Assembly (NCBI GenBank): GCA_964602245.1 | Contig: CAZRPY010000001.1 | Span: 152,246-216,245 of the forward strand | From: an uncultured Methanosarcinales archaeon | GTDB lineage: Archaea > Nanobdellota > Nanobdellia > Woesearchaeales > JACPIF01 | DNA length: 64,000 nucleotides | Direction: 5' to 3' | Shown here: one piece after another, positions 703 to 20,580 of the stretch | Numbering within the stretch: position 1 is the first letter of the stretch | Layout of the letters: every line of letters starts with the position of its first letter | Program-made: the position numbers and the translations under genes | Notes under the pieces: generated by a model | Told to the model about the DNA's origin: nothing | Seen by the model: only the letters and a program-made list of their open reading frames with translations | The model's database searches: none

Positions 703-1488
703 CTACGAAAACTCTATAGCAAACTTTATTTTGTGCTCTTTCTCTACTATATTGCTCTTTTCATCTGTTACTATGAGCTTTTTGCCAGTATTATAGCATA
801 ATGCGTAGATTTTTCTTTGATAGGATTTTAGATCGCACTCTTTTCCAAGAGCGCCTTTTCTTACTGATAATATAGCACCGTTTTGATCTCTTGCTAATCT
901 ATGATTTTGAGTGTCTGAGAAGGTTAATTGGCTTGAAAGCTTTGAGTTTTTGATAATGACTGAATATTTGTTTTTGTTAAGCTCTGTATTAACTACAATA
1001 TTAGATCCATCTTGGGATAGCTTATATTCTGCTTGGCTAATATGTTCATGAGCACATTCACAATTATTTTCTGTGCTAGAAGAGCAATTACTTAAATAGT
1101 CAAGGAAATCCATAAAGATTCCTTCATCACCTTCATAACAGCCTATGGCTAATGGAAATCCTGGTTTATTAGAGCCTTCTTTAAGATTAAATTTTAACAT
1201 TTCAGTATTAACACAGGCTTCTTTATCCTTTTCTTGTGAGCAGGAATTAGATATTTGTTTTAAGGCTTCTTCTATCTTGTCATAAACATCTAAATAGTAG
1301 TCTAAATCTATAGAGAAAGAAGGCCTGATGGAATAGGTGCCTATTACGATGTTATGAGGAATATTTTCTATAAATTGTTGTAAAGTTGCTTGACCTGTGA
1401 TTTTATTGCTTGGGTATAACTCAAGTAATATAGCTAGCCCTATTAATAGAAAAACTATTGCAGGTATTATAATAATTCTTTTTTTCAT
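703..1488 (-). CDS. Secreted or membrane-anchored hypothetical protein; last gene of the surface-protein operon
   Basis: The N-terminus is basic then hydrophobic (MKKRIIIIPAIVFLLIGLAILL). The gene is tightly packed on the same strand as its neighbours. Confidence 0.6.
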   Translation of the reverse strand: MKKRIIIIPAIVFLLIGLAILLELYPSNKITGQATLQQFIENIPHNIVIGTYSIRPSFSIDLDYYLDVYDKIEEALKQISNSCSQEKDKEACVNTEMLKFNLKEGSNKPGFPLAIGCYEGDEGIFMDFLDYLSNCSSSTENNCECAHEHISQAEYKLSQDGSNIVVNTELNKNKYSVIIKNSKLSSQLTFSDTQNHRLARDQNGAILSVRKGALGKECDLKSYQRKIYALCYNTGKKLIVTDEKSNIVEKEHKIKFAIEFS

Positions 1489-1491
1489 TTT

Positions 1492-2592
1492 TTAGCCTAT
1501 CATTCCATATAATGGTTTAACTTCTGCTAGCTTTTGTTTTGACATTTCTATTGCCCATAGTTCTGTGCCATATTCCCAGTGCCACCATTCACTAGGAAGA
1601 TTAGTAAAGCCTGCTTTAGTCATGATTTCTTTTAGCTTCTGTCTGCAATTATGTATGTCTATGCCTCTTGGATCTTTGTTATTAGCATAGTCGTCTATTT
1701 GGGACTTATCTAGAATGTTAATTGTGCCACAAGAATTTCTATTGCCATTAATAACTAGCCTTACATCAACTGCACCACCTGTCTGATGGCTTGATTTTCC
1801 TGCAGGAGCTGCATTTCTATTAATGCATTTACCATTTCTTAATTTCCCACATATTTTTTCTTGATCATCGTAGCTTCTGTAAGCATCGTTCACTATTAAT
1901 TCGTAGCCTTGGTCTTGAGCATATTTCTTTGCTAAATTTAATTGTTGCAGGGCTTGGGCTCTTAACTGACATATTGTATTTTTATCACGAGCTGAACAAG
2001 AAAAATCATATAGCTTCTCACTAGGCCCAGTTCCTATAGTTAGTAAAGGAGTTTGATAAGTTTCAATAGGATTTTGAATTTTTGCTAGTTGTGTCTTAAG
2101 AACTAAATCATAATTTACTCCATTAAGAGCTACTCCAAGGAACTTTAGATTTTTATCGTTAATAACAGAATATTCATAATTTTCTGCTTTCATATTTATA
2201 TCTTTATTTTTTTCTAGCCTTGGTTTAAAAGAGTTTTGGAATTCTTTCTTAATAGCTGTATCTATTTCATTTTTACTAGGGAAACAATTGTCATTTGCTT
2301 TATTCCATATAGCATAAGTTCCGTACTTATCGCATTTATTTAAAATACTTGGAATTTTATTAATTGCTTCCTGTAAAGTGTAATAAGCTGCTGACTGAAT
2401 AAATATTAGTTGGGAAAAAACCTCATTTTCATTATTATACATTGAAAGTGCTGATTCACCAATAAAAGTTACGTCTGGTCTGAAGTTTTTTACAGTTGTG
2501 CCAAATAAAGTTGCAACTGCTGCAACAAATCCGATTAATATTATATATATTAATACTGCTGATTTTTTATTTAAAATAGCTATTTTTGTCAT
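1492..2592 (-). CDS. Membrane-anchored peptidase M15 / VanY-like D-alanyl-D-alanine carboxypeptidase domain protein
   Basis: It has an N-terminal TM anchor. The C-terminal domain carries the LAS-metallopeptidase signature SxHxxGxAxD (SSHQTGGAVDV) and ExxH (EWWHWEY), plus a DxxR-like YRSYDDQ segment. Confidence 0.6.
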   Translation of the reverse strand: MTKIAILNKKSAVLIYIILIGFVAAVATLFGTTVKNFRPDVTFIGESALSMYNNENEVFSQLIFIQSAAYYTLQEAINKIPSILNKCDKYGTYAIWNKANDNCFPSKNEIDTAIKKEFQNSFKPRLEKNKDINMKAENYEYSVINDKNLKFLGVALNGVNYDLVLKTQLAKIQNPIETYQTPLLTIGTGPSEKLYDFSCSARDKNTICQLRAQALQQLNLAKKYAQDQGYELIVNDAYRSYDDQEKICGKLRNGKCINRNAAPAGKSSHQTGGAVDVRLVINGNRNSCGTINILDKSQIDDYANNKDPRGIDIHNCRQKLKEIMTKAGFTNLPSEWWHWEYGTELWAIEMSKQKLAEVKPLYGMIG

Positions 2593-3083
2593 TATGTTAC
2601 ACCTATGTCTTTCCCTATATTGAGGCTTATCGTAAGAATTTCTCCATTTGGAGCAGAGAGTTTGACTGAGGCTAACCTGGTTTTTGATCCTGCTGAATCA
2701 AAATTTTTATCTTTTATTTCTAAAGAGTGTATGGGTTCTATTCTTAACATCCATGCTACTTTAGAAGGATCTTTATAATGTGCTTTAAAGAAATTGTTAG
2801 TATAGTCTTCAAAGTATTTATAGTCGTTATTTGCTATTGCTAAAGCTAGTAAGTCTATAGTCTTTTTGCCTTTATCATCTACTGAACTAAGATATTCAAG
2901 TAGAATTCTTGCTCCTTCTGCTCTTTCTAGAGCATCATCTGCATACTGATTTATTTGGTTTGTAATATTGCTCTTTATGCCAAGAAAAAAGGGGATGGAT
3001 ACCCCTATTATAAATATAGCAAATATTACTTGAAGCCAGTCATCCATAATACCTCTTTTATTTAGCATTTTGTATCTCCACAA
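2592..3083 (-). CDS. Type IV pilin-like protein with class III signal peptide
   Basis: The N-terminus is MLNKRG|IMDDWLQVIFAIFIIGV. This is the archaeal prepilin pattern of a short basic n-region, Gly at -1, then a hydrophobic helix. Confidence 0.55.
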   Translation of the reverse strand: MWRYKMLNKRGIMDDWLQVIFAIFIIGVSIPFFLGIKSNITNQINQYADDALERAEGARILLEYLSSVDDKGKKTIDLLALAIANNDYKYFEDYTNNFFKAHYKDPSKVAWMLRIEPIHSLEIKDKNFDSAGSKTRLASVKLSAPNGEILTISLNIGKDIGVT

Positions 3084-3570
3084 TTAAGAAGCCTTTTGAT
3101 ATTTTCCCCTTGTCATAGATGTTAATTTCTTTAGTTTTCTTAGTGATAAGGGCAGAGTCATCAAAATTTTTAGTTGTTAGAATAATTTCCTGATTATTCT
3201 TAATATCTTTAAGAGTTAAACTAAAAGCTTTTACTGTTTTCTCTTTAAATTTTGATTTTTCTTCTACTGCATAGCATTTGTCTAAAGTTTCTTGATTAAA
3301 TTTTTCTATATCTATAGTATTAAAGAAATAATTGAATTCTCTTTGAGAAGCTGAAAAACATAATGGAGAGTTGATAAATCTTTGCAGAAAGATGAATGTA
3401 TCTAAGTTTTTTGGAGTTTCTATTTTTACATTGCCTATCCTTATTATTAGAAAGGTAAAAAGTAATAAGAGAATAGCGATAATAAACAATACTGCTACAT
3501 AAAAAATAACATCGTGTGCAAAAAGCTGGGCTTTTTTCCATCTTTTGGAGATTTTACTTCTTGTATTCAT
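3058..3570 (-). CDS. Hypothetical membrane-anchored protein
   Basis: It has a basic N-terminus followed by one TM helix (VIFYVAVLFIIAILLLLF). It overlaps its neighbours, consistent with an operon. Confidence 0.5.
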   Translation of the reverse strand: MNTRSKISKRWKKAQLFAHDVIFYVAVLFIIAILLLLFTFLIIRIGNVKIETPKNLDTFIFLQRFINSPLCFSASQREFNYFFNTIDIEKFNQETLDKCYAVEEKSKFKEKTVKAFSLTLKDIKNNQEIILTTKNFDDSALITKKTKEINIYDKGKISKGFLIVEIQNAK

Positions 3571-4484
3571 TTGTTGTATTCCTCTATACCTTTTATGATA
3601 GAAATTGAAAAATCTGAGGGTATTTTATGATAATTCTGATTTGCAATATTTCCTAATTCCAAGTAGATTGCAAAATCTTGATCTTTTAGGATATATCTTG
3701 GATCATTTGGCTCTACTCTATTTGTATCTATTGGAATAATTACATAGCTATCAACATTAACTCTTTCCATCATCTCGTTAATAATGAAACAGCTAACAGT
3801 AAGTGCTTCTTTTGTATTTCTGGAATTATGAGAGATATAAGCTTTAATATGATTGCTAGGAAGGTTGATATTGTTAATATTTAAAGCTAATAAGAACTTA
3901 TCAATTTGCAGCTGAGAAGACGGTATGTAATTAACACTTCCTTTAAGTCCATCTGAGATTTTTTCCAATTCTTTATACTCGTCTGAATCTTTTTTAGCCG
4001 CTGAATGGAGAATTATTGGTTGTGTAATTTTCCTAAAATTTTGTTCTTTATCGCATTCAAACTTATTTATAGCAAAAGTGTCATAGTCTATGTAAATATT
4101 CTTACCTTGCTTATTAATTGCAAAATATAATGGATTTTCTAGATTAATATTTTTAGGATTAATGTCATTTTCTTTTTGAGTTACAAAATAATAAATTCCT
4201 GGAGTAAGATCTCTGGCTTTTGTGGAGATTTCTACTTTGTTATTGTTTATGTTTATCCTATAGTTATAGAGGTCATTAAATTCTACATATGCATTTCCTC
4301 TCATTCCAGATAAAGCATCTATTGCTAAACCGATCTCTTTTGCTATTTCTTGTTTATAATGAATCTCATTACTTGCATAATCCTGCGCTTCATTTATAAA
4401 AAGCCAACCTACAAATATAGCTAGCACTATCTCTGCTACAACTATAACAGGATATTCTGTGCCTGTTTCTCCTCTTTTATTCAT
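3567..4484 (-). CDS. Type IV pilin-like protein with class III signal peptide
   Basis: The N-terminus is MNKRG|ETGTEYPVIVVAEIVLAIFVGWLFI. Confidence 0.55.
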   Translation of the reverse strand: MNKRGETGTEYPVIVVAEIVLAIFVGWLFINEAQDYASNEIHYKQEIAKEIGLAIDALSGMRGNAYVEFNDLYNYRININNNKVEISTKARDLTPGIYYFVTQKENDINPKNINLENPLYFAINKQGKNIYIDYDTFAINKFECDKEQNFRKITQPIILHSAAKKDSDEYKELEKISDGLKGSVNYIPSSQLQIDKFLLALNINNINLPSNHIKAYISHNSRNTKEALTVSCFIINEMMERVNVDSYVIIPIDTNRVEPNDPRYILKDQDFAIYLELGNIANQNYHKIPSDFSISIIKGIEEYNK

Positions 4485-4491
4485 TTTAGCA

Positions 4492-5157
4492 TTAAGGATA
4501 TCCTATATAAGAGCTAGGTGAGATTACATTACAATTTCTTTTTGGACATACTCCAACTTTTCCAAAGTCTTTTCTTACATATAATGCATTTAGAGTGTCT
4601 TTTGCATAGATGCCAAATATTTCTTGAAATAGCCTGGGGAAATCACTGCTTCTAATTATACCAAATCCATTTTTCCATGAATATGTAACAGTGTTTAGTC
4701 CTTGCCTAAGGTCGTTGATATGTGTGTAGTCTGTTATTATTACATTGTCCAAAGACCTACAGTTCATTGTTCCTACACATCTAAATTCTTTATCGTCAAT
4801 TAATATTTCTGAACATATACATACACAAGAGCTTTCTTTTTTGCATCCTGTTTCTTGGCTAGGTCTTGTAAGAGGCCTGACTGTACTTTCCTTTGATTGC
4901 AAAGTAAGGACTAATTCTAACTTATCTGCATTAGGAGCAAATCCGAAAACTGCGTTCTTGTCATTATCAAGAAAAAATGCTACTGGATCCTGAGAGCCTT
5001 CTTCTACGCTTTCGATTGCACTAACTAAAGTGTTAAAAGAATTTGAGGTTCTAGTAGTTATTTTAAAAATGTCTATTGCAATTTCAGTAGCAAAAACAAA
5101 AAGGATTATACCAATTACTAATAATATTATTGCTATAGTCACAAAACCTTTGGCCAT
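4492..5157 (-). CDS. Type IV pilin-like protein with class III signal peptide; Cys-containing C-terminal domain
   Basis: The N-terminus is MAKG|FVTIAIILLVIGIILFV. Confidence 0.6.
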   Translation of the reverse strand: MAKGFVTIAIILLVIGIILFVFATEIAIDIFKITTRTSNSFNTLVSAIESVEEGSQDPVAFFLDNDKNAVFGFAPNADKLELVLTLQSKESTVRPLTRPSQETGCKKESSCVCICSEILIDDKEFRCVGTMNCRSLDNVIITDYTHINDLRQGLNTVTYSWKNGFGIIRSSDFPRLFQEIFGIYAKDTLNALYVRKDFGKVGVCPKRNCNVISPSSYIGYP

Positions 5158-5159
5158 TT

Positions 5160-5474
5160 TTATTTAGATGATTTTCTTTTTTCTTCAATTTCTTTTCTAC
5201 AGATATCAGAAGGTGTTGGGCATTTTCCTTCAGAATCTTTTTCTTGGTTAGCATTGCAAGGACATGGATCAATAGTGTCAAAAACTCCATCATTGTCATG
5301 GTCTAGAGATAAGCCTGTTGCCGTATCTCCTATTGGTTTAGAGCTCTTGGAAAAGAGTTGTCCTGGGCCAAAAAAGGTATAGCCAATAACTATTAATGCT
5401 AATAGCCCTAGCATCATACCAACAATTACCCACATCATGCCACCTTCCATTGCTTTCTCATTCATTTGTATCAC
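5160..5474 (-). CDS. Small membrane-anchored protein with a thrombospondin-type-3-like Asp-rich Ca-binding motif
   Basis: It has a hydrophobic N-terminus. The C-terminus reads DHDNDGVFDTIDPCPCNANQEKDSEGKC, which is a DxDxDG Ca-binding-like motif. Confidence 0.5.
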   Translation of the reverse strand: MIQMNEKAMEGGMMWVIVGMMLGLLALIVIGYTFFGPGQLFSKSSKPIGDTATGLSLDHDNDGVFDTIDPCPCNANQEKDSEGKCPTPSDICRKEIEEKRKSSK

Positions 5475-5477: not shown

Positions 5478-6212
5478 TTATGCGCATTTATATTGTTTTT
5501 GCAGATCTAAATTTCTTACATACTGAGGAGGGATACCTCTATCGTATGATGCTCCTAATAAACCTCTATAAGTTGGTAAAAAACAAATATTGTTTTGGTC
5601 AATATTAAACATTAAGTTTGAATCATCTAGCACTCCATTAGTTAGCTTTTGACCTGATTCATATTCCACTATAATTGTATTTTTCCCTTTAACTGTTATT
5701 TTATTGGCTCTTGCATATTTCTGTTGAGTAGTGTCTGGCTGTTTAAGAATGAACTTATTTATGAAATATCTTACTTGGCTTTGTCCAGTTACTACACAAG
5801 GATATTTCTGTTCTATAAACTCTCTCTTAACCTCCTCTCCTTTAGGAGCTTGTATTATTATAAATAAGCCATTATAAGCTTTCTGGCGAGATTTGTCTAA
5901 GACTATTGAATAGCTTTGGAAATCTTGAGGAAACTGAAGATTATAAATAAGGCATTCATTATTGTATTTAACATCTTTTAAGAAAGATACTAATGAGTTA
6001 TAAGCCTGGTTTAATTCTGGTGGTGGTGTTAGAGTTCCTGCTTCTATATCAGGTGTTTTGCCATAACTTACTGAAATCATGTTTATTAGGAAATTAAAAG
6101 CTGTTGTTAGAACACTAAATAACTTACCAGTCCATCCAAGGTAAACTACTAGGAGTAAACCTACTAGTGCTAAAAGAACTACTATTTTCAAAAGAGCTTT
6201 TTTGCCAATCAT
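5478..6212 (-). CDS. Secreted or membrane-anchored hypothetical protein
   Basis: The N-terminus is MIGKKALLKIVVLLALVGLLLVV. Its start overlaps the stop of the upstream small pilin ORF (ATGA overlap). Confidence 0.55.
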   Translation of the reverse strand: MIGKKALLKIVVLLALVGLLLVVYLGWTGKLFSVLTTAFNFLINMISVSYGKTPDIEAGTLTPPPELNQAYNSLVSFLKDVKYNNECLIYNLQFPQDFQSYSIVLDKSRQKAYNGLFIIIQAPKGEEVKREFIEQKYPCVVTGQSQVRYFINKFILKQPDTTQQKYARANKITVKGKNTIIVEYESGQKLTNGVLDDSNLMFNIDQNNICFLPTYRGLLGASYDRGIPPQYVRNLDLQKQYKCA

Positions 6213-6355
6213 CTTGAAAATTTAATAGCTGAAGCGTCTGGGGCTTTGCTAGTAAAATAAATATAAAGTAAGATAACTACAAGTATTAAAGCAGACATTA
6301 GCACTAGATAAACAACTGCATTTGCACCTATTTCAAAACCCTTTTTACTTTTCAT
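6209..6355 (-). CDS. Small (48 aa) archaeal pilin or flagellin-like protein, absent from the ORF track
   Basis: My translation of the minus strand 6355..6209 is MKSKKG|FEIGANAVVYLVLMSALILVVILLYIYFTSKAPDASAIKFSR*. It has a canonical class III signal (KKG|F...). Its stop overlaps the start codon of the next gene. Confidence 0.55.
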   Translation of the reverse strand: MKSKKGFEIGANAVVYLVLMSALILVVILLYIYFTSKAPDASAIKFSR

Positions 6356-7623: not shown

Positions 7624-7779
7624 TTATGGAAGTTTAGTTTTAAAGAAGTTTGTAATCGCAAAATATAATAGTATGATTAATAACAAAGAAATGATAAGTA
7701 TAATTGCAAATTGAGCAGCTCTAGCTCCGGATATCTCTGAATCCTGGGCTTTTTTGTTTGATAAAATCTTGTTTTTCAT
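7624..7779 (-). CDS. Small (51 aa) membrane protein, possibly pilin-like, absent from the ORF track
   Basis: My translation is MKNKILSNKKAQDSEISGARAAQFAIILIISLLLIILLYFAITNFFKTKLP*. Its stop lies 1 nt upstream of the start of the 6375..7622 gene. Confidence 0.4.
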   Translation of the reverse strand: MKNKILSNKKAQDSEISGARAAQFAIILIISLLLIILLYFAITNFFKTKLP

Positions 7780-7846
7780 AAGTTTATTACTTAAGAACTT
7801 TGTATATAAGCCTTTCTAAAGCTAGGCTTCAGTAAAAATAAGTTTC

Positions 7847-7965: not shown

Positions 7966-8109
7966 TTATTTTTATCAGAGCTTAAAGCTAAAAAGAGATT
8001 TTATCGCTAAATAAGATAACTAAAGAAATAATAAGTATAAGAATAAAGGAGCTTACTAAAATAACTGATAAAGAAATACCTTGAGCTTTAATGCTACTCA
8101 TATTAGCTA

Positions 8110-8385
8110 TTATGTTGGAATACAACACTTAGTGTTTTGGGTGTCTTTTTGGCCAGCTATAAAGCATGATGCTCCTGGAAGATAGACATTATCCTGTGGA
8201 CAATCTTGACCTGTTGGAACACATTTGCCACCTTTAGCTTGGCAGTCCTCAACGCCAACTCGGAATATAGCAATTCTTCCAGTAAATATAAGCACTAAGA
8301 TAACTAAAACTATTAAGGCTATCGCTGCAACTATAATTACATTTAAAGATAGCTCAGCTCCTCTTTTATTTGATTTTTTAAGCAT
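8110..8385 (-). CDS. Type IV pilin-like protein (91 aa) with class III signal peptide and Cys-rich C-terminus
   Basis: The N-terminus is MLKKSNKRG|AELSLNVIIVAAIALIVLVILVLIF, a textbook archaeal prepilin signal. Confidence 0.7.
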   Translation of the reverse strand: MLKKSNKRGAELSLNVIIVAAIALIVLVILVLIFTGRIAIFRVGVEDCQAKGGKCVPTGQDCPQDNVYLPGASCFIAGQKDTQNTKCCIPT

Positions 8386-8466
8386 GACAATGCCTCTATA
8401 TTTCTTTTAAACCTATTATTTGATGTATATAAAGCTTTCTATGTGATTTAAATTTATATGATTTAT

Positions 8467-8973
8467 TTAGCTACATATATCCATCACTAATGTTAAGGTT
8501 CCTGCATCTGTCTGGATATAGTTTTGTTTTGATTCCTTTTCTCCTGTGCATCTTCCATTTGTATTCTTTAGTATAACTTGGCCTGGTATCCTAGCCTCAA
8601 ATGAGTAGCTTTGATTGCCCCATGCTGTTAAAGTTGAATCAAAGATAAGGCTAATAGTGCTTTTTAAATAGTCACATGACCTTTGGTTATTTTGACATTT
8701 GAGCTGGGTATTAGGAGAGTTATAATTTTCTGCGCAATCCTTAAAGAGGTTATTTACAGAATTTCCAAAACAGTCTATAGTTGTTGTTCTTAAGATAGAA
8801 CTTAAAAGATTGGATGCTAATTGTGTTTGAGTGAATGTTTTTTTAATACTAGAGGGCTCTTTATTTACAGTGAATTGTATTATAAATAATATTCCAAGTG
8901 ATATGAGAATAACTATAACTGCTAACCCCATGATTTCCATTTGTGATTTCTTACTGGTTATTTTGATTTGCAT
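8467..8973 (-). CDS. Pilin-like or membrane-anchored secreted protein
   Basis: The N-terminus is ...SKKSQMEIMGLAVIVILISLGILFII. The start region is tandemly duplicated: atgcaaatcaaaataa occurs twice at 8958-8989. Confidence 0.5.
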   Translation of the reverse strand: MQIKITSKKSQMEIMGLAVIVILISLGILFIIQFTVNKEPSSIKKTFTQTQLASNLLSSILRTTTIDCFGNSVNNLFKDCAENYNSPNTQLKCQNNQRSCDYLKSTISLIFDSTLTAWGNQSYSFEARIPGQVILKNTNGRCTGEKESKQNYIQTDAGTLTLVMDICS

Positions 8974-11196: not shown

Positions 11197-14100
11197 TCAC
11201 TTTTTCCTCTTTTTTATTAAGATGTCTAATTTCTCAAATGAATTCTTGCTGGTTTTTAATTTTGGAACTTCTTTTTGAGCTTCCTTCTTTATCTCTGACT
11301 TCTTTTGCTCAGGCTTCTTAATCTCTGATATTTTCTCTTTACTTATCTCCTCTTCTTTTTTGCCTAGGCCAAAAATATCTAAGATACTACTTTTTGTCTT
11401 AAACTTCTCTTTCATCCTAAGCTCAAATAATTTATGTTTCTCCAGTTCTAACTGTGGTTTTTTAGTTGGCCTTAATTTAATTTCCTCCATTTTTTGATAT
11501 TGAGGCTGTTGAACTTTTGGTTTTGTTATTTGGAATTGGGGCAAACTTATTCTTTGAATTGATTTTAGTTTGTAGCCGTATTTTTTATATCCAAGAATTG
11601 CACCTGCAATAATTAAAATAAAGGCTAAGCTATATATTATATAGGGAAGAATTCTTGAGCTAGGGTGAGAATTCTTGTCTAAAGGATCTGTGCCTGCTAA
11701 TATTTCCACATTATCTCTATAGCCGTCATCGTCTGTGTCTGCTTTGAAAGGACCTGTTTTGGCTCTCTGTTCTTCAATATTATTTAGCTCATCTGTGTCA
11801 GTATCTTCTTCTCCGTCGTTTATACCATTATTATCTGAGTCTGGTAAAAGTTTATTTAAATTATGAAGGTCTTCCCACTCATTTGATAAGCCATCTCCAT
11901 CTATGTCTTCATCACAGATATCTCCAACGCCATCTTTATCCAAATCCTCTTGCTCAGGATTCTCTTCTTCAAGACAATTATCTCTTGAATCTGGAATGCC
12001 GTCTTCATCTTCATCTGGCTCCAGTAATACACACTTATTATGGATACAGTCTGCACCAATTGTGCAATCATCTTTAATATTGCATTGCCTACCTGCTTCA
12101 CACCTTAAAGGACAATAAATGCCACAATCTATGTCACCTTCGCCAGAATCAAGAACGTTATTTGAGCAAGGGCTGGGCTTTTTGCATACACCAAACTCAC
12201 AGTTGCCTGAGGAGCAATCTAAATTTTGGATGCATTTGGCTTCAAGGCTGCATTTATTTTGGCATGCGCTGCCACAATCTATGTCTGTTTCTTGGCCGTT
12301 TTTTATTCCATCATTACATGCTTCTTTTTTGCATTTCTTTGTTGATGGATGGCAAAAGCCAGAGCTACAATCAGAATTTTCTATGCATTTTGCATCTTCT
12401 TGGCAACCCTGGCATGAGCCACCGCAATCTATATCTGTTTCAGTTTGATCTTGTATATTGTTTGTGCAGTGGCTTGGCTTCTTTGAAATATCAATAGTAA
12501 CTCCATTACTTTCAAGTATTTTACTTGTCAAGCCAACTATATTTGTAGAATCTACTTTAAAGACATACTTTGTCTTATCAGTTAGATTGAGAGGCCTATT
12601 TGAGCTGTCTTTAGTAATTACTACAAATTCTCCACCTACTGTACTTTGGGTTTGGTTGATAATTGAGGATCTAGACGGCAGGGTTTCAAGGCTGTATCTG
12701 TAGTATTTAACCAAACTTTCATTTTCCTCTGCAAGCCATTTCACTCTTAGCCTGTCAGTTTCCCAAGTAAATTCTGGATCTTCTACTAGAGTGCTGCTAT
12801 CATTTACATATAACATTGCAGGGGGTGTTGTGTCAATTGTAAAAGCAATAGTAGCTATATTAGAAAAGACTCCTGCTACTATACATCTTGCATAATACGT
12901 ATGTGTTATTCCCTGCTGTAGATTTGCAACTGTTCTTTGATGCCTATAGCCAATTTCCCCAAAAGAATTTGAGATTGAATCTTGAGCTTGGCCATAATAG
13001 CATTGGGCTTTTTTATTTGTAGATATATCTAGGATTACATTTGATGTATTCGAATAACGAGGGGTATTAACCTGGATAGTTAAAGGCTCACTTTCATTGA
13101 TTTTGAAGGTAATAATTGAGGTATTGGATAACAAACCTGCTTCATTCTCACAGGAAACAAAATAAGTATATTCTTGCTTTGCTCTTGTAACAGTTAAATT
13201 TTGGCTATGGACCTTTTGATAATTTTCCTTATCTGGGAAAAAATTAGGCATTTCAGGATAGATTTTCTTTGAATCATCATATCTGCAAATAGTGTTGTCA
13301 TCTGTCTGAACTTTAAGCACTGTTTTTAGATCTGATTCTATTATTATTTCTGGTTGTGCAAAAGCTGCCAGAATAATAGGTGGTGTTTTGTCTATAGCAA
13401 CTTTAAACTCCTTTTCTATAACTCCCCAGACACCATCATCACATTTTACAAATAAAGCATGGTCTTTTTGATCGCCTTCTGGTATATCCTTAAAATTGTT
13501 AATTCTGTGAATTAAGCCTCCTGTTGCAGAGAAGTCTTTCATATTCTCAAAAATTGTTCCAGGCAAATCCATGATATATTTGCATTTGGCATCATTATCA
13601 GTGCCTATTGTTATGTTAAATACAGATTCCTTAGAAACTCCAGTTTTTGGGATTAACATAGTAATAACCGTTGGGACAGCATTTACTATAAAGCTAAAAC
13701 TGCCATTAACAGAATTTCCAGCATAATCAGTTGCCTTGACAAAGACTGATTTTAAGCCATCGCTAAGGTTTAGCTTTATTTGATGAAATCTATTATCAAG
13801 AGTAGTAAAATTGTCCTTTAAGTCAGATGTGAGTCCAGTAACTATAACATTATTCAGGTCAACTTCCTTAGTGAAGTTTAATGTTAAAACAAAGTTTGTA
13901 GATTTTATAGTAATATTATTCGGAGAGCCTGTAAACTTTGGTGGATTATTGTCAATATTAATTGTTATTACCCTTGGAGATTTCATAAATCTTCCAAAAT
14001 TGTTCCTTGCCATAATAGTAAGGTTATATTGGCCATCTGGCAATGGAGAGTTTGGAATAAAAGAATGGATAGTATTATTCTCGAAAACTTGTTGAGTAAG

Positions 14101-16080
14101 AGGTATACTAGTCTTATTTTCACCTATAAAACTAGAGAAGCTAATTATAGAAAAGTCTGAGAAAGTAATATTAATTATTGGTTTTATGTTGTTCGTGTAG
14201 AAAATTCTATTTGCAAATTTATCGCCTTGAACTGAAACCTTTAGTATAACAGGTCCAGTGACATTAGGAGAGGCATTAAAATTTAATGTCTTAATTACCC
14301 CTAAATTATTTGAAGGATCTCTTGTATAGAATTTTAATATATTTTCTCCAGGACTAAGGGTTAGGATTTGTTTAACTCCATCAAAAACCTTTAAGTTATT
14401 AACTATTAAGAAAGTATTAGTAGTTATTATTGGGAATTTTGAGCCATCAGTGCAGCTTTCAGTTAAAGTATTACAGATAAATATTTGATAATTGCTAGTA
14501 ACTCTTCTAGCAGAACCTATTTTTTCTGTTTTGTCTAAGATGTCTATATTGAATTGAGTTGGTATTCCTTCTTCAAATGTTGTTGGCACTATATTGGTAT
14601 CAGGAGGAAAGTAGTCTGCTTCACATTGTAAATTAGTGCAATCCCTATCTTGGCTGTAGTCTGCACTTTTGCTACATTCTCCAAATACTGAAGCGCAAAC
14701 GCCTATCCTACATTTGTCATTACTTCTAGAGGTTATGTTATTGGTAGAAGGATCTATTGAAGCCTTATTGAAGGAAAGGCATTCTTCGTTACTATAGTCC
14801 TTACATGTAACTTTTTCGCAGCTTAGGCTTTCCCCATTCTTAAAGAAGCATGGAAAGTCTTGAGTTGAAAGAGCTTCTGATTTCTCCTGAGTACAAATGT
14901 CAAATACTGAATTATAAGCTTTTAATGTTGGTGAGCTTGGGCTTCCCTTTTCAACACACCATTGGCAATTTTCCTTGTTCTTGTTAATACAAACACCTAT
15001 TCCAAGAGCTTGTATTGTATCTTTCCATAAGCAACCTGAGATTTGGCAGTTATCTGTTTCACATGCTGATTTTGTTTTATAATCATAACAATCCATGTTG
15101 GGATCACAGTTGTAGCATGTGTTGACTATTGTTGAAGATCTGTCAAAGAAGCAATATCTGTAATTTTGCTGAGTACCTTCACATCTTTGCTTATCTGTAA
15201 ACAGCCCAAAAGGATTATTAGTTGTATTTGTGCATTGAGTTTTTATTGCACATCTTGCTACACTTCCATCAGAAATACATGCACAAGATTGTCCTGTAAA
15301 GCAGTCTGCTGTTCCTGAGTTGCAATTTACTACTGGACTACTAAGTATATTTTCTTCATTACAGAAAAATGCTTTATTAAATCTTGAGGAAAAGGTATTT
15401 AATATTTCATTATTAAAGTTACTTGCTGTAAAGCCCTTTTTTGAGATAAGATAGGAAGAGTATTGGTTATAATATCCTTTATTTATGCAGAATTTGTCTT
15501 GGGTATTTCTATTAAAGCATTCAAGGTTACCTATTGAGAAATTAGAGCTAATTAATGAGGATTTGTCTTGAGTCCTGAAATAGCCTGTAACTTTATATGA
15601 ATAGTCCTTATCGAATAATAAGTCATCTGATTGATCAGTAAAGAAGTTGTCAGTAGTTGTGCCAATTAATTTAAAGTTACAAGTTGGCAAGTCACATCTT
15701 GAAATATTATAGAACTCTGCTGGACAATCAGATATCCATGTTAGAGTTACCTGCCTTTTACCTTGAACTGTAATTTTCTCAAGATTTTTAAGCTTTGGAG
15801 AGAAAGAAGGCTCATTGCAAGAAGTAAGATTAAGGCTTAATGTCGGGCTTCCAGAGCCGCAAACACTTGGACAGGTTTGCCTGCTGGAGGGGATTACAAA
15901 CCTAAACTGACAATTTTCTCTGCTTACAAAAGAATTTGGAGTTGCTATATTGCCATTACAACAACAGCCTGCATCTCCTGCTTTAACTAGATTAGATAAA
16001 GAAAGTAAGATAATTAACGATAAGAATATAATAGCTATATAAACTAAACTATTTCCTATAACTTTTATTTTGGCTTTCAT
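11197..16080 (-). CDS. Giant (1627 aa) cell-surface adhesin-like protein with signal peptide, Cys-rich repeats, thrombospondin type-3-like Ca-binding repeats and a C-terminal TM anchor with a Lys-rich tail
   Basis: It has an N-terminal signal. There are three roughly 48-aa repeats, each containing the motif ETDIDCGGxC...DCSSGxC. Asp-rich motifs DKDGVGDICDEDIDGDGLSNEWE and DSDNNGINDGEEDTDTDE are TSP3-like DxDxDG. A C-terminal hydrophobic segment ILPYIIYSLAFILIIAGAILG is followed by a K/E-rich tail. Confidence 0.7.
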   Translation of the reverse strand: MKAKIKVIGNSLVYIAIIFLSLIILLSLSNLVKAGDAGCCCNGNIATPNSFVSRENCQFRFVIPSSRQTCPSVCGSGSPTLSLNLTSCNEPSFSPKLKNLEKITVQGKRQVTLTWISDCPAEFYNISRCDLPTCNFKLIGTTTDNFFTDQSDDLLFDKDYSYKVTGYFRTQDKSSLISSNFSIGNLECFNRNTQDKFCINKGYYNQYSSYLISKKGFTASNFNNEILNTFSSRFNKAFFCNEENILSSPVVNCNSGTADCFTGQSCACISDGSVARCAIKTQCTNTTNNPFGLFTDKQRCEGTQQNYRYCFFDRSSTIVNTCYNCDPNMDCYDYKTKSACETDNCQISGCLWKDTIQALGIGVCINKNKENCQWCVEKGSPSSPTLKAYNSVFDICTQEKSEALSTQDFPCFFKNGESLSCEKVTCKDYSNEECLSFNKASIDPSTNNITSRSNDKCRIGVCASVFGECSKSADYSQDRDCTNLQCEADYFPPDTNIVPTTFEEGIPTQFNIDILDKTEKIGSARRVTSNYQIFICNTLTESCTDGSKFPIITTNTFLIVNNLKVFDGVKQILTLSPGENILKFYTRDPSNNLGVIKTLNFNASPNVTGPVILKVSVQGDKFANRIFYTNNIKPIINITFSDFSIISFSSFIGENKTSIPLTQQVFENNTIHSFIPNSPLPDGQYNLTIMARNNFGRFMKSPRVITINIDNNPPKFTGSPNNITIKSTNFVLTLNFTKEVDLNNVIVTGLTSDLKDNFTTLDNRFHQIKLNLSDGLKSVFVKATDYAGNSVNGSFSFIVNAVPTVITMLIPKTGVSKESVFNITIGTDNDAKCKYIMDLPGTIFENMKDFSATGGLIHRINNFKDIPEGDQKDHALFVKCDDGVWGVIEKEFKVAIDKTPPIILAAFAQPEIIIESDLKTVLKVQTDDNTICRYDDSKKIYPEMPNFFPDKENYQKVHSQNLTVTRAKQEYTYFVSCENEAGLLSNTSIITFKINESEPLTIQVNTPRYSNTSNVILDISTNKKAQCYYGQAQDSISNSFGEIGYRHQRTVANLQQGITHTYYARCIVAGVFSNIATIAFTIDTTPPAMLYVNDSSTLVEDPEFTWETDRLRVKWLAEENESLVKYYRYSLETLPSRSSIINQTQSTVGGEFVVITKDSSNRPLNLTDKTKYVFKVDSTNIVGLTSKILESNGVTIDISKKPSHCTNNIQDQTETDIDCGGSCQGCQEDAKCIENSDCSSGFCHPSTKKCKKEACNDGIKNGQETDIDCGSACQNKCSLEAKCIQNLDCSSGNCEFGVCKKPSPCSNNVLDSGEGDIDCGIYCPLRCEAGRQCNIKDDCTIGADCIHNKCVLLEPDEDEDGIPDSRDNCLEEENPEQEDLDKDGVGDICDEDIDGDGLSNEWEDLHNLNKLLPDSDNNGINDGEEDTDTDELNNIEEQRAKTGPFKADTDDDGYRDNVEILAGTDPLDKNSHPSSRILPYIIYSLAFILIIAGAILGYKKYGYKLKSIQRISLPQFQITKPKVQQPQYQKMEEIKLRPTKKPQLELEKHKLFELRMKEKFKTKSSILDIFGLGKKEEEISKEKISEIKKPEQKKSEIKKEAQKEVPKLKTSKNSFEKLDILIKKRKK

Positions 16081-17327
16081 TTTTTAGGTTTTCCCTCTGT
16101 CTCAAAAACAAAATCTTGATAATCTTCTAGTAGTTCGTCGCTAACTTTTACTGTTAATAACCAATTATTGTTAAATGGTGGAGTGTCTTGCGAGCTAATA
16201 GTGTAAGGAAGGCTTGGATTATAAGAATAACTGAGAGAATCTTCATCAGGGTCATAAGATGACTTTGGATTAGTATTTTGCTGAAATATTTGACTTCCAT
16301 CTCTAATTATAACTAGAGGAGAATTGGCACTGAAAGTAATTTCATCTCCTTCTCTAAGAGTTGGAAGAGCTTGCTCAATTATATAATGAAGGGCAGGATA
16401 CCTGTTTTGAATACTAAACTGGAATGTAAATGGCCTGCCATATAAAGTTGAAGCTGGATCTGTAATGGATAATACATCATCTTTTTTGAATAAATTTCTT
16501 GATAGGCTTACTTCCATTACATCAAAGTTTACCTGGCTTGCATCAAAATTTAATGAATTGGAGTCTGTATCTATTATAGTTCTTGCTAGATTATAAATAA
16601 GTTTAAGCCTAATTTTAAGTGGGACAGAAAAGTCTTCTATTTTTGTTATTTCTTCTCCAGTTACTTTATTAATTATTATTGGAATCTTGGCGTTAGCTAC
16701 TATATGGTTATCTCCAATTATTACTGAACTAGTTACATTTGTATAATTTATATTATAAGTTTTAAATGACTGGAAATTAAGGCATGTGCTGGCATTATTG
16801 TTAATAAAATGCTCTAATTGAGATAAAATAGATATGTTTGAGCCAGAAAGGTCTGGAAGAGAATTTTGACCATAATAACCATTATTAAGGTCTATTGTGG
16901 TGTAAGTTGTGTCAGTATAAGGAAATTCTGGCCATGGATAGCTTGGTGGTTGCCAAAAATATAATTGGCTAATATCTGAGCTTGGGCGTTTAAGGCCATA
17001 GCTAACTTTATAGCCTGAATATAATATGTGGTCATTTCCTAGTTCCTTAGTATCTGGAATAAAGCCACCTTGGGATTTATAGATAAAACTGCCTTGTTTT
17101 CCTATGAAATCTAAGGCTTTAAAAGCTGTTTCTTCAATGCATTTATTTACAAATTCTTTAATACTGGCAATTCCTATAGCTGTTTGCTGGCTTTCTGTAG
17201 ATTGCCTGCCAAGCTTTTTCTCTGTCTTGAAAAGAACTAAATAAAATAGGAATATAAGCATAGCAAAGATAACTATGCCTATTATTATCATTATCGTTAA
17301 TTGAGATTTAGTATAAATCTTTACCAT
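16077..17327 (-). CDS. Membrane-anchored hypothetical protein (416 aa)
   Basis: It has an N-terminal TM helix (LTIMIIIGIVIFAMLIFLFYLVLF). It overlaps the giant gene by 4 nt. Confidence 0.55.
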   Translation of the reverse strand: MVKIYTKSQLTIMIIIGIVIFAMLIFLFYLVLFKTEKKLGRQSTESQQTAIGIASIKEFVNKCIEETAFKALDFIGKQGSFIYKSQGGFIPDTKELGNDHILYSGYKVSYGLKRPSSDISQLYFWQPPSYPWPEFPYTDTTYTTIDLNNGYYGQNSLPDLSGSNISILSQLEHFINNNASTCLNFQSFKTYNINYTNVTSSVIIGDNHIVANAKIPIIINKVTGEEITKIEDFSVPLKIRLKLIYNLARTIIDTDSNSLNFDASQVNFDVMEVSLSRNLFKKDDVLSITDPASTLYGRPFTFQFSIQNRYPALHYIIEQALPTLREGDEITFSANSPLVIIRDGSQIFQQNTNPKSSYDPDEDSLSYSYNPSLPYTISSQDTPPFNNNWLLTVKVSDELLEDYQDFVFETEGKPKK

Positions 17328-17361
17328 TATACCTCCTTTTTTAAGCTATAAGAGTATTTTT

Positions 17362-20052
17362 TTAAGTTGACCTTAACTTAGATGTGAGATCTTGCCATAC
17401 TTCATTGCCTATTTGATATCTGCTAGAGACTGTTACTATGGATTCTGATTGATTACAGAAGAGGATGTTTACTCCTGCTGAAGCTCTTTCCTTGTTTATC
17501 TCCTGGACTAGTGAGCAGACATCAATAGATGGGTTGCTGTATTGTATGCTTAAATAAGGATCATTTCTAATTATCTCTATTACACCTTTAACTGACTTGT
17601 CTCCAGAGCTAGATATATACAATCTGCTAAACTTCTTTGTTGATTGCAAGAAAGATAAGTCAACTTGGACTCCTTCATAAGAGGGCTTTGTCTCTTGGAT
17701 TTTGCCAAAAATCTTGGAAAAAGGACTCTTCAAGAGTAGGATAAATTTATCAAAGAAATTTATTTGTGGATTTAGGTTTATTGATGTTTTGCTAAATACT
17801 ATTGCTTTTATTTTATTATTATACCAAGCCAGTGGGCTTGTGCAAGAATGAAATTGTCCGTCATTTGCTAGTGCATTATTGCAGTAACTTATAGGTAATT
17901 CAAATGCTTCAAGAATTGAAGGATCTTTATTAATAATAGTGTTTATTGTTGTTCCAACTATTATATTGCTCTTAGTTTTTAAAACACAAAAGTTATTAGA
18001 GCAAGGTAATTGAGTAGCGTTTATGGCACAACTAGTTATTAAATCTGTTTTTACATTAAAGCCACTTGGCAAGGAATATTCAAAATTGTTTAGTACATTA
18101 GAAAAGATATCGCAATAAAGTGTATAATTACCTAGACTAGTACTTTCAGCACTGTCAAGCATTGCTAATGCTAGTAACTTAGTTCTAGCACTCCAATTTC
18201 CTTCTTCACAATAATTATCTCCTATATACTGAGTGTCATTAATGCATTGGATATTGTTATTTAAAGCTGCTGAGAAATCTTGGGTAAAGTTCTCAATTAA
18301 GCCATTTTTACTGTTAGAGCTAGTTGGATTAACTAAGCATTGAGTTTTTTTGGGGCAATAGCCTTGAGCACTTTCATCCGAATTGGTTTTTAATGGTGAT
18401 TCTGACCATTCTCCTTTAATGCATCTATTTCCATTAATAGCACTGCTTATGGCTGAAGTAGACTGATCATTTAAGCATTTAGAGCCATCCCAGCATTGAG
18501 TTGCTGTACAGCACTCTTCTTGAGGAACACTAGAATCTGTCCAACCAAGTTTTTTTAGGGAATCTCTAACTTCTGCAGATCTGTTCCATATACCTCTGGA
18601 TGAGCAAAATGAATGTTGGCCCTGCTGAAAGCCATTTAGTATTACTGCGCAAAACTGGTTGTTATGTACTAACTCTTTGGCTGTAATAGAATCTTTTAAT
18701 GCTTTTAAACTTGGCTTTGAATCTGTATTACAGCCTTCAAATGAGCCATTTGCATTAATAACCTCTTTCTGAATAGGATTGGTGTTGCTTGTAACATAAT
18801 TCTTGTTGAATACAGGAATACCATTCCAACAGGCTATGCTTTTATTAGGTTCGTTATAATACTCTTCAGAATCGTCGCCACAGCATCTTGTGCCTGTCCA
18901 TGTATATTGGCCATTAGATGTACAAGCCTGAGCACTTGAATCTCCATCTCTCCACTGACCATTATCACATAGGAAGTTATTGGTTGTATTTGACCACTCG
19001 CCTGCGGAATAGCACTTATTGAGAAAATTACAGTCAGAACTGCTTGAGCAGCAAGATTCTGTATCATCAATCAGGTCTCCTTTGCTTACAGTGATATATT
19101 CTTCAAAATCATCGCCACAGCATTTATCTGGGTTTTGTGAGCCGCCTATTGACCACTCTGTGCCATTACAAGAATTGCACCAATCTTCTCCTGTGTCTAA
19201 GTCAACTGGAGTAAAAGAGCAACTTCCTGAGGAGCAGCCATAATCTCTAGCACTGCAAACACCGCCATTTCCACATTTGCCATCACACTTTGGCTGAGAG
19301 GCTATATTTGGTCTATTAGGAGCTAATGAATCATAGATATTACAGTCTACTGTTTTAGTTTCTGACTTTAAGCCATTACATCTTGAAGTTGTTAGAGTGT
19401 TGCCTGAACAAGAGCTTGTTAAGCTTCTGTCTTCTCCGCATTTACCAGTATCTGAGCCTGAGATAATACAGCCTTCATTGTCTATAATTGTAATTTGGCC
19501 AAAATCGTTATATTGAGTAGGACCTATGCAATTATCTACACCACAGTTTCCTTGATCCTTTCCTTTGTGGCAGCCTCTAGTAGCTACACAATAATTGTCT
19601 GAGAGCTTGTCACAGCATCTCTTTTCAGTGTCCCAGAATGAGTTTGCTATGCAGGAGCATGCTGAGCTTGAATCATCTGGGTTTTTCTGGCCACTAGTTG
19701 AGGTTGTCTGAGGGACTGTACACTTACACTGTGCAGGATTGCTTTCTATGCAGACCTGTTGTGAGTAATAAACTTTAAATTCGTCTATGGTTAATGTGCC
19801 AAAGGATGCGAACTCATCTCTTTGGTCATAACAGCCAGGGCTGTATGTTAAGCATGGAGGTGGTGTCTGGCAAGTTCCTGAAATACATACTAAGCCAGAG
19901 TTACAACTAGAGCCGCCACAGCACATCTGACCATTGCCACCGCATGGAGGGGGAGATGGAGGAGGAGGCTCGCCTTTGCTCATGACTATTGAAGATAAAA
20001 CAAGAATAAATGTGAAAATACAGATTACTTGTAAAACTCTTTTTTTATTCAT
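17362..20052 (-). CDS. Secreted Cys-rich protein (896 aa) with a Pro-rich linker after the signal peptide
   Basis: It has a signal peptide followed by GEPPPPSPPPCGGNGQMCCGGSSC. The motif CCGDDxEEY occurs twice, and W-containing Cys modules (CDNGQWRD, CIKGEWSE, CEEGNWSA) also repeat. Confidence 0.6.
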   Translation of the reverse strand: MNKKRVLQVICIFTFILVLSSIVMSKGEPPPPSPPPCGGNGQMCCGGSSCNSGLVCISGTCQTPPPCLTYSPGCYDQRDEFASFGTLTIDEFKVYYSQQVCIESNPAQCKCTVPQTTSTSGQKNPDDSSSACSCIANSFWDTEKRCCDKLSDNYCVATRGCHKGKDQGNCGVDNCIGPTQYNDFGQITIIDNEGCIISGSDTGKCGEDRSLTSSCSGNTLTTSRCNGLKSETKTVDCNIYDSLAPNRPNIASQPKCDGKCGNGGVCSARDYGCSSGSCSFTPVDLDTGEDWCNSCNGTEWSIGGSQNPDKCCGDDFEEYITVSKGDLIDDTESCCSSSSDCNFLNKCYSAGEWSNTTNNFLCDNGQWRDGDSSAQACTSNGQYTWTGTRCCGDDSEEYYNEPNKSIACWNGIPVFNKNYVTSNTNPIQKEVINANGSFEGCNTDSKPSLKALKDSITAKELVHNNQFCAVILNGFQQGQHSFCSSRGIWNRSAEVRDSLKKLGWTDSSVPQEECCTATQCWDGSKCLNDQSTSAISSAINGNRCIKGEWSESPLKTNSDESAQGYCPKKTQCLVNPTSSNSKNGLIENFTQDFSAALNNNIQCINDTQYIGDNYCEEGNWSARTKLLALAMLDSAESTSLGNYTLYCDIFSNVLNNFEYSLPSGFNVKTDLITSCAINATQLPCSNNFCVLKTKSNIIVGTTINTIINKDPSILEAFELPISYCNNALANDGQFHSCTSPLAWYNNKIKAIVFSKTSINLNPQINFFDKFILLLKSPFSKIFGKIQETKPSYEGVQVDLSFLQSTKKFSRLYISSSGDKSVKGVIEIIRNDPYLSIQYSNPSIDVCSLVQEINKERASAGVNILFCNQSESIVTVSSRYQIGNEVWQDLTSKLRST

Positions 20053-20055
20053 TTT

Positions 20056-20580
20056 TTATTTCACATCTAATATAAAGTTAATAGCAGCATAATTATGGTT
20101 AGGATCTCCGTAAGGGAAATCTGTATTTCTGGCATAAATAGTAAATTCTGCAGTGCCTATAAAATCGTTATTATGATACTCAATAGGAACAAGTTTTATT
20201 TCTTTTGACTCTAAAATAAAAGGTTTATTGTCATATTCAAATACTCCTGATTTTATAATACCAGCTTCATTATCCTGGTATACTTCTTTTATATCTATTT
20301 GCAAATTTAGATTTCTATTTAATTGATTGGATATGCCTATTAAGAATGTAAATTTCTCTTTATCTCTTGCACTTGGTTCTTCATCATCTATCCATATCTT
20401 TTCATTAGAATGTTTTAGCTGTGAAAGGATATATGCTTTTTCAGTTTTGTAATCATCTAGGATACAGTCACAATTTGGATAAAGGCCTGTTGTGCTATAT
20501 GTTAATATTAGAATCAGAACTATAATGAATAATATAGCTATAGATTTATAGAGATTGCTTATCACCGCTTTTTTACTCAT
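20056..20580 (-). CDS. Membrane-anchored hypothetical protein; first gene of the minus-strand surface-protein array
   Basis: It has an N-terminal TM helix (IAILFIIVLILILTY). Confidence 0.5.
   Translation of the reverse strand: MSKKAVISNLYKSIAILFIIVLILILTYSTTGLYPNCDCILDDYKTEKAYILSQLKHSNEKIWIDDEEPSARDKEKFTFLIGISNQLNRNLNLQIDIKEVYQDNEAGIIKSGVFEYDNKPFILESKEIKLVPIEYHNNDFIGTAEFTIYARNTDFPYGDPNHNYAAINFILDVK

Follow-up and report, generated by a model that had tools for sequence, protein, structure and literature searches.

The clade 1 type IV pili of archaea are encoded by loci that hold several small major pilin paralogues, at least five minor pilins, large adhesins and S-layer-like proteins (PMC4858521), and the major pilin of the Epd pilus has no globular domain (bioRxiv 10.64898/2026.04.22.720090). 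The specificity of the signal peptidase EppA has been described (PMC4858521), and class III signals are also carried by the sugar-binding proteins of Sulfolobus (PMC4858521; bioRxiv 10.64898/2026.04.22.720090). DPANN archaea are reported to have type IV filament (TFF) system 1 and subsystem 4A (bioRxiv 10.64898/2026.04.22.720090), and their genomic islands are said in general terms to contain unrecognisable pilins (PMC6393860). The subject of this work is a cluster of 21 genes at positions 703-20580 of a 64-kb stretch of archaeal chromosome (the window, by which we mean the whole stretch analysed) assigned to Woesearchaeota, and no description of this cluster was found in the literature searched. 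Considering the prepilin-type N-termini of most of its products, we favour on balance the view that it provides one half, the structural and accessory one, of an attachment apparatus that is specific to the lineage and resembles an Epd-like (clade 1) type IV filament.

The cluster consists of 21 consecutive open reading frames (ORFs), all on the minus strand and numbered g01 to g21 in transcription order, in line with the roughly 20 co-directional genes that an earlier, sequence-only reading of this DNA had claimed. The packing it described, with overlaps of 1 to 4 nt, is tight but not uniform, as neighbouring genes overlap by 1-19 nt or lie 1-34 nt apart, except near the small pilin genes, where three larger gaps (81, 153 and 208 nt) occur. 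Where it had counted two small pilin-like ORFs missing from the ORF list, there are three of less than 60 aa with pilin-like N-termini (6209-6355, 7624-7779 and 7988-8128); these, g13, g11 and g10, remain ORFs in diverged relatives. All 21 products are exported or membrane-inserted, each with exactly one N-terminal hydrophobic segment, to which g04 adds a transmembrane (TM) helix near its C-terminus and g12 a second, Gly/Ala-rich hydrophobic segment, also near the C-terminus (residues ~320-357). In transcription order, and with a slash at the predicted cleavage site, the genes are:

20056..20580, minus strand: g01, 174 aa, MSKKA/VIS and then a TM helix; first gene of the array
17362..20052, minus strand: g02, 896 aa, Cys-rich secreted protein with a Sec-type signal, a poly-Pro linker and 63 Cys
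16077..17327, minus strand: g03, 416 aa, class III-like KS/QLTIM; conserved GKQGG, NRxPAL and DPDED motifs
11197..16080, minus strand: g04, 1627-aa type I membrane giant
10681..11187, minus strand: g05, 168 aa, NA/QVIGE; opens the conserved tetrad g05-g08
9608..10675, minus strand: g06, 355 aa, NKG/FVEIQFNWIF; marker gene of the cluster
9127..9606, minus strand: g07, 159 aa, KA/QIKMTET
8467..8973, minus strand: g08, 168 aa, KKS/QMEIMGL, six conserved Cys
8110..8385, minus strand: g09, 91 aa, KRG/AELSLNVIIVAAIAL and a 6-Cys head; candidate major pilin
7988..8128, minus strand: g10, 37-46 aa, IKA/QGISLSVILV; solely signal peptide and helix, the ORF being kept in the related loci L006 and L003
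7624..7779, minus strand: g11, 51 aa, NKKA/QDSEIS and then a helix
6375..7622, minus strand: g12, 415 aa, NKRG/VEAL; ectodomain with ~14 conserved Cys
6209..6355, minus strand: g13, 48 aa, KKG/FEIG and then a helix
5478..6212, minus strand: g14, 244 aa, GKKA/LLK; [KR][GA]/ in orthologues
5160..5465, minus strand: g15, 101 aa, NEKA/MEGG; weak TSP3 repeat
4492..5157, minus strand: g16, 221 aa, AKG/FVTI
3567..4484, minus strand: g17, 305 aa, NKRG/ETGTEYP
3058..3570, minus strand: g18, 170 aa, WKKA/QLFAH
2592..3068, minus strand: g19, 158 aa, NKRG/IMDDW
1492..2592, minus strand: g20, 366 aa, M15/VanY-type zinc peptidase with the class III-like N-terminus NKKS/AVL
703..1488, minus strand: g21, 261 aa, Sec-type signal or anchor, conserved [IV]TGxA motif, eight Cys

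The N-termini carry the argument. Eighteen of them share a short basic stretch, K/R at -2, A/G/S at -1, mostly Q at +1 and a hydrophobic helix of ~20 residues, which frequently bears, between +3 and +6, a conserved residue that is polar or acidic; g02, g04 and g21 have a Sec-type appearance. A relaxed class III rule ([K/R][G/A/S]/x immediately ahead of the hydrophobic segment) is satisfied by 18 of the 21 locus ORFs as against 3 of the 40 other ORFs in the window (Fisher p = 1.1e-9), and two of those three encode polytopic membrane proteins. The seven prepilin motifs that the sequence-only reading had quoted are all present, namely KRG/AELSL (8110-8385), NKRG/VEAL (6375-7622), KKG/FEIG (6209-6355), AKG/FVTI (4492-5157), NKG/FVEI (9608-10675), NKRG/ETGT (3567-4484) and NKRG/IMDD (2592-3068), and eleven more ORFs, where it had spoken of several further pilin-like N-termini, carry a second flavour of the motif, K[A/S/G]/Q or KK[A/S]/x. 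The K[A/S]/Q form is seen in g03, g05 (as NA/Q), g07, g08, g10, g11 and g18, and the KK[A/S]/x form in g01, g14, g15 and g20.

The same module recurs in the relatives of these proteins. Among 654 family-assigned ORFs with an N-terminal helix, drawn from 80 related loci, 623 have [KR][GAS] directly ahead of the helix, as compared with 293±12 in shuffles of the same residues, and [KR][GAS]Q is found 358 times in orthologues versus 25±5 times (maximum 39) after shuffling. Site-aligned orthologues yield the consensus N/S-K-K-(A 43%, G 35%, S 22%)/Q 57%, in which the K/R at -2 is fixed by how the sites were aligned. Inside each family the cleavage-site motif is constant and the leader ahead of it varies in length; across more than 15 unrelated families the distance from motif to helix is fixed. 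Individual families add their own signatures: orthologues of g05 read Q-V/I-x-G-E/Q with a conserved E/Q at +5, those of g08 at the locus (alignment A5) have invariant Q+1, E+3 and G+6, those of g20 carry KK[GSA]/Q, and the g06 alignment (A1) shows a near-invariant [KR][GA]-x-[IV]-E-[IV]-Q-F-N-W-I-F-I-L, with E+3 and the QFNW motif nearly invariant and four Cys invariant. Motif statistics and conservation in orthologues alike thus bear out the prepilin-type character claimed for these N-termini, whose architecture is, judged from sequence, that of an archaeal class III signal peptide with a predicted cleavage site. Szabo and colleagues reportedly recognised Gln at +1 in 2007 as the signature of EppA substrates in Methanococcus. 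A curious variant is the g06 homologue P0026 of locus L026, which bears the RKKAQMSIQFNW signal motif three times in tandem at its N-terminus; this could be an assembly artefact or a genuine duplication of the cleavage site.

Some 17 otherwise unrelated families have this N-terminal module as their sole common feature. Compared between families with hhalign after removal of the helix, the ectodomains are mutually unrelated, except that the g09 head is related to the Cys module of g12 (hhalign probability 80%). Because a lack of relatedness beyond the helix is the usual pattern of type IV pilins, we count it in favor of a filament. Known families in Pfam and NCBIfam hidden Markov model (HMM) searches cover just M15/VanY and the Big_13/TSP3 repeats, the only PHROG match among the locus proteins is an endolysin-like one of g20, and g02, the claimed Cys-rich nature of which is upheld by its Cys count, matches nothing in Pfam, NCBIfam or PHROG. 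The AlphaFold2 (AF2) model of g06 (predicted local distance difference test, pLDDT, 88.7) consists of a helix at residues 5-60, a beta domain and three C-terminal helices, and that of g08 has an N-terminal helix extending up to residue 62, such that both present a long helix followed by a disulfide-rich globular head. This helix-plus-head ("lollipop") layout of the models is compatible with a pilin-like general form. The two confident models retrieve no pilin fold, the g08 head resembles a Cache/PDC ligand-binding domain rather than a pilin, and sequence profile searches of the PDB with g06, g08, g12 and g03 found nothing.

The cluster recurs widely among related genomes. When one genome per GTDB species was scanned, 198 species genomes proved to encode a relative of g06, the marker; in a clustered protein database g06 has 34 relatives, the profile of which reaches 2136 clusters at 50% identity, 1065 of them with E <= 1e-30. 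Eighty loci were fetched with 10-kb flanks and their ORFs assigned to 21 families, using for the small families first-round matches and best-scoring assignments, because the iterated HMM search drifted through the shared N-terminal helix. Synteny is seen in the 80 fetched genomes, with gene order kept down to 27% g06 identity. Over the 54 loci with a complete upstream flank, g04 occurs in 50, g08 in 46, g07 in 45, g05 in 42, g12 in 40 (frequently in two copies per locus), g14 in 38, g16-g19 in 24-28, g03 in 22 and g02 in 18, and the peripheral, poorly conserved g01 has relatives in only two of the fetched loci. A median of 13 same-strand ORFs follow g06 in each locus, 11 with a class III-like N-terminus. 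Overlaps of 4 nt recur at g03/g04 (15 of 22 genomes), g04/g05 (31 of 58) and g07/g08 (32 of 60), as well as between g18 and both g17 and g19 in relatives, and the block g03-g04-g05-g06-g07-g08 is translationally coupled. Here and in several diverged genomes the cluster adjoins the RPA gene. From these comparisons the locus is best described as a vertically conserved chromosomal module of Woesearchaeota, and the term "cargo locus" used in the sequence-only reading is misleading for a module that is conserved and syntenic in 80 genomes, often lies beside RPA and has no relatives on viral contigs.

Within this module, the region behind the tetrad is where candidate major pilins are found. In relatives, a regular 70-136-nt gap downstream of g08 precedes one to four tandem small pilin genes. 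The g09-type proteins (about 80-90 aa), which form one to four tandem paralogues in relatives, are made of a signal peptide, a helix and a 4-6-Cys head, and the head of g09 itself has weak defensin-like Pfam similarity. Searched at E <= 0.1, 144 small pilin-like relatives matched no Pfam pilin family, giving just TM-driven and weak defensin-like matches. Major pilin candidates are thus probably included in the cluster, and the proposal that it holds minor pilins only is not sustained. Two elements precede small pilin genes in the window:

8425..8438, minus strand: AAAGCTTTATATAC, a BRE/TATA-like (B recognition element/TATA box) element ~45 nt upstream of the g09 ATG
just upstream of g11: AAAGGCTTATATAC, which resembles AAAGCTTTATATAC; its TATA core CTTATATA lies at 7803-7810, 24-31 nt before the ATG

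It is plausible from their sequence that both are archaeal promoters. The second stands within the 208-nt non-coding gap between g10 and g11 (7780-7987). This gap, AT-rich for the rest, also includes a hairpin-like stretch of high GC content, gacaagggggaagtcccttacggggaaagtc, without an Rfam match. In four related loci (L051 at 12101-14676, L066 at 12092-14876, L073 and L078) a pair of genes separates g08 from the small pilin genes: one, of ~290 aa and on the opposite strand, is AbrB/MazE-like (PF04014) and may be a local regulator, the other is a 570-630-aa ORF; both are absent from the window.

Next to the tetrad, on its upstream side, is g04. It begins with a Sec signal, a GCC motif, a Cys-rich region and an Ig-like (Big_13) domain, and continues with three DxDCGG Cys repeats, TSP3 Ca-binding repeats, a TM helix (1476-1494) and a K/E-rich cytoplasmic tail of ~130 aa. 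The TSP3 and Big_13 domains agree with the Ca-binding surface protein of 1627 aa that had been claimed, but the C-terminal TM helix and tail do not allow it to be simply secreted. In 50 of 54 loci an orthologue of g04 sits just upstream of g05; the orthologues range from 1000 to 3100 aa, and the C-terminal TM helix and tail are retained by 48 of 55. Eighteen of the 55 have a GCC[T/S/I]NPG motif right behind the Sec signal, and in g04 the three repeats, in full DxDCGGxCxxC, stand ahead of the TSP3 region.

The VanY/M15-like peptidase recognized by the sequence-only reading, g20, is recovered by two Pfam models, Peptidase_M15 at 42.8 bits against a cut-off of 27 and VanY at 38.7 bits against one of 25, its SSHQTGGAVD and EWWH motifs fit the SxHxxGxAxD and ExxH of family M15, to which it belongs, its nearest solved relatives in the PDB are YodJ and VanX, and it matches PHROG endolysin families. 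On these sequence features it is an intact M15 enzyme. The catalytic motifs are common to g20, the M15B/VanY D,D-carboxypeptidases and the phage M15 endolysins; unlike these enzymes, g20 is archaeal and joins its peptidase to a class III-like signal or anchor and a 200-aa domain of unknown nature. In several genomes g20 and g21 are fused into one protein of 650-816 aa (L026, 17859-19808; L072, 18266-20350; L031, 18158-20269; L068, 17380-19830), which suggests that the two window proteins work together. To our knowledge Woesearchaeota lack murein. A second secreted cluster lies on the minus strand of the window (54094-61166). It encodes a multi-TM protein of 847 aa (57230-59773) in which an SLT lytic transglycosylase domain is recognized, a 389-aa class III-like protein (MRKG/QANTLVLI) and three paralogous lipoprotein-like ORFs with a Cys behind a short signal peptide. 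The SLT protein may be the "large lytic murein transglycosylase" of Woesearchaeota, the genes for which have been read as predatory ("vampiristic") equipment (PMC9723730), and archaeal peptidoglycan hydrolases that act on bacteria have been proposed (PMC12352652). Relative to that work, the same lineage would carry a second peptidoglycan-directed enzyme; neither a pilin-like cluster nor an M15 enzyme with a prepilin-type signal is described there (PMC9723730). Taken together, the M15 enzyme and the SLT protein of the window point, at the level of sequence, to bacterial partners, in keeping with both proposals (PMC9723730; PMC12352652).

How might these parts work together? In the filament-like apparatus that we favor, a class III signal peptidase of the EppA/FlaK/PibD type, encoded elsewhere, would cut behind the small residue, and a FlaI-like ATPase with a FlaJ/TadC-like platform, likewise encoded elsewhere, would assemble the small subunits. 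Homologues of flaI, flaJ and flaK are reported in most Woesearchaeota metagenome-assembled genomes (MAGs; PMC11606122; PMC5994134). Subunits of the g09 type, perhaps with g10, g11 and g13, could then polymerize into a pilus or short pseudopilus, with the larger pilin-like proteins g05-g08 and g12-g19, with their Cys-stabilized heads, as minor, priming or decorating subunits. Adhesion would be supplied by the giant Ca-binding g04 and the Cys-rich g02, and the pilin-anchored peptidase g20 may trim a bacterial partner's peptidoglycan where the cells touch. As a whole, the apparatus is proposed to serve attachment to partner or host cells combined with local remodelling of their wall.

A number of observations weigh against this proposal. 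As the sequence-only reading had stated, the window encodes no assembly ATPase, platform protein or prepilin peptidase: no window ORF of at least 90 aa matches the Pfam families T2SSE, T2SSF or A24, and a T2SSE-type Walker A motif occurs neither in any frame of the window nor in 82 loci. The three components are equally lacking in the 10 kb on either side of the marker in 80 genomes, so that nowhere in the lineage is the presumed motor found linked to the cluster over this distance. The flanks of related loci hold unrelated housekeeping genes, and no motor gene appears among the 25 listed of 111 Pfam families matched by 134 unassigned flank ORFs. The signals themselves are not classical throughout, since only 9 of the 21 ORFs pass a strict FlaFind-like pattern, g12 does so at a site other than the proposed KRG/V, and Ser at -1, seen in 22% of aligned sites, lies outside the classical FlaFind rule. 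No locus protein matches Class_IIIsignal (PF04021, QXSXEXXXL) or Pilin_N (PF07790) in Pfam at E <= 0.01 or any NCBIfam pilin model, and the Pfam scan finds no DUF2341 in g02 or g04. Finally, g04 is anchored by its own C-terminal TM helix and cannot simply occupy a pilus tip. The second option of the sequence-only reading, an uncharacterised attachment apparatus, may still apply.

Several of these points would be expected if there were no long pilus at all, and the products formed instead an anchored, non-filamentous surface complex of the bindosome or cell-envelope kind around g04. The class III N-termini would then merely process and tether the ectodomains (ligand-binding heads, the M15 enzyme and Cys-rich modules), with g04 as an S-layer-like or spike protein. 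Such a complex, to which we give a serious but clearly minor chance, would accommodate the C-terminal anchor and cytoplasmic tail of g04 and its coupling to g03 and g05, the Cache/PDC-like g08 head, the presence of the same N-terminus on an enzyme, g20, as on the Sulfolobus sugar-binding proteins, and the failure to find motor genes nearby. It fits less well with the tandem g09-type genes and the helix-only g10, g11 and g13, which are typical of polymerizing major pilins, with the conserved gap, and in the window the TATA-like elements, ahead of the small pilin genes, or with the conserved acidic and polar residues at +3 to +6 in the helix, which pilin-pilin packing would call for but a plain anchor would not. 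Moreover, the Sulfolobus bindosome itself requires an ATPase and a platform protein (BasEF). A more far-reaching reading, rather unlikely in our estimation, is a device by which an archaeal epibiont or predator would penetrate bacterial hosts on contact. Here, a pilus-like stalk anchored by the giant Ca-dependent adhesin g04 would bear as its tools the g20 peptidase, the defensin-like Cys-knot heads of g09 and the Gly/Ala-rich segment of g12 as a membrane-inserting element, and it would act jointly with the separate SLT cluster at 54-61 kb to break through the wall and membrane of the bacterium and obtain metabolites.

The remaining alternatives are less likely. The tetrad of 168, 355, 159 and 168 aa, tightly coupled and beside large exported proteins, resembles GspH-K and could with the small subunits form the piston of a type II secretion-like pseudopilus that exports g02, g21 and the hydrolase; this is improbable, however, given that the proteins have neither sequence nor fold similarity to pseudopilins and that the cluster has no secretin, ATPase or platform protein. 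We also know of no archaeal type II secretion system (T2SS), and single-membrane cells need no piston to release Sec substrates. It is quite improbable, too, that the N-termini are ordinary Sec signals or anchors, with K-[GAS]-Q as a compositional or lineage habit in a run of unrelated secreted proteins. Although g02, g04 and g21 do look Sec-type and pilin family HMMs give zero matches, the excess of [KR][GAS]Q over shuffles, the fixed spacing between motif and helix and the gene order kept in 80 genomes speak otherwise, and the motif is missing from other secreted proteins encoded in the window, for example those of the lipoprotein-like ORFs at 54094-57228. An integrated virus or mobile element encoding envelope or adsorption proteins and an endolysin can hardly be credited: the endolysin matches of g20 in PHROG and the orphan status of nearly all genes would suit it, but the G+C content equals that of the flanks, the RPA-adjacent position is kept in diverged genomes, and no integrase, capsid, terminase or tRNA gene was found. 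A prophage or mobile element was rejected, as 0 of 2.9 million viral contigs encode a g06 relative.

The surroundings of the locus are those of an ordinary archaeal chromosome. The window has ~32% G+C, a value that the locus shares with its flanks, and encodes elsewhere TBP, MCM, both PolD subunits, Cdc6, Hjc, the tRNA-intron endonuclease, FEN1, RFC and aRF1; tRNA and Rfam scans of the window gave zero matches. Because it is in Woesearchaeota / Nanoarchaeia MAGs that the locus proteins have their closest relatives, the host is placed, on sequence relationships, in Woesearchaeota as a DPANN archaeon. An identical 19-kb contig is held in ENA assembly ERZ27284378. Many cluster-bearing MAGs (L006, L009, L010 and others) are titled "uncultured Methanosarcinales archaeon", one Dehalococcoidales and one Aminicenantes; as all else places the locus in Woesearchaeota / Nanoarchaeia, these bins are probably mislabelled or contaminated. 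Beside spermidine synthase genes at 22618-24566 lie two orphan ORFs without Pfam matches, one of 322 aa on the plus strand, Cys/His-rich with a signal peptide, the other of 327 aa on the minus strand with a single TM segment.

Woesearchaeota are among the most widespread uncultivated archaea, and the cluster offers a concrete gene set for an attachment apparatus in this lineage, almost wholly beyond the reach of Pfam and NCBIfam. It would add ~17 new pilin-like families to the inventory of archaeal type IV filaments, and it suggests that throughout an order the genes for the structure can lie entirely apart from those for the motor. The placement of a bacterial-type cell-wall peptidase behind a prepilin-type signal further suggests a route by which enzymes may be displayed on a type IV filament scaffold.

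Set against described systems, the cluster shares individual features with several. Like the bacterial minor-pilin operons (fimU-pilVWXY1E) and the T2SS pseudopilins GspH-K, it has four coupled pilin-like genes, one much larger than the others, beside the gene of a very large Ca-binding adhesin, in a set encoded, as in minor-pilin/PilY1 operons, away from the motor genes. Unlike them, it shows no detectable sequence or fold homology, its cleavage motif is of the archaeal type, and where the PilY1 system has a beta-propeller tip adhesin, g04 is an integral type I membrane protein. With the Sulfolobus bindosome it shares non-pilin ectodomains (the M15 peptidase and possibly Cache-like heads) behind a prepilin-type N-terminus, but the ectodomains are other ones, an ABC transporter context is missing, far more genes are involved and the lineage is DPANN. 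The closest likeness is to the clade 1 or "system 1" pili, such as the Epd pilus of Methanococcus maripaludis, with related loci in Thermococcales and Methanobacteriales, which likewise have many class III-signal proteins per locus, small major pilins in several paralogues among them, large adhesin-like and S-layer-like proteins, Q at +1 of the predicted cleavage site and, in the Epd major pilin, a counterpart to the helix-only small pilins. Epd loci, however, have the ATPase, two platform (TadC-like) genes and often EppA co-located, whereas the cluster has none of these within ±10 kb in 80 genomes; nor does it have DUF2341 adhesins or detectable similarity to arCOG/Pfam pilin families. What it has instead is 18 pilin-like genes, as compared with ~5-8 in Epd-type loci, and it is set apart from them also by an M15 peptidase of pilin type and by a giant protein anchored through its C-terminus.

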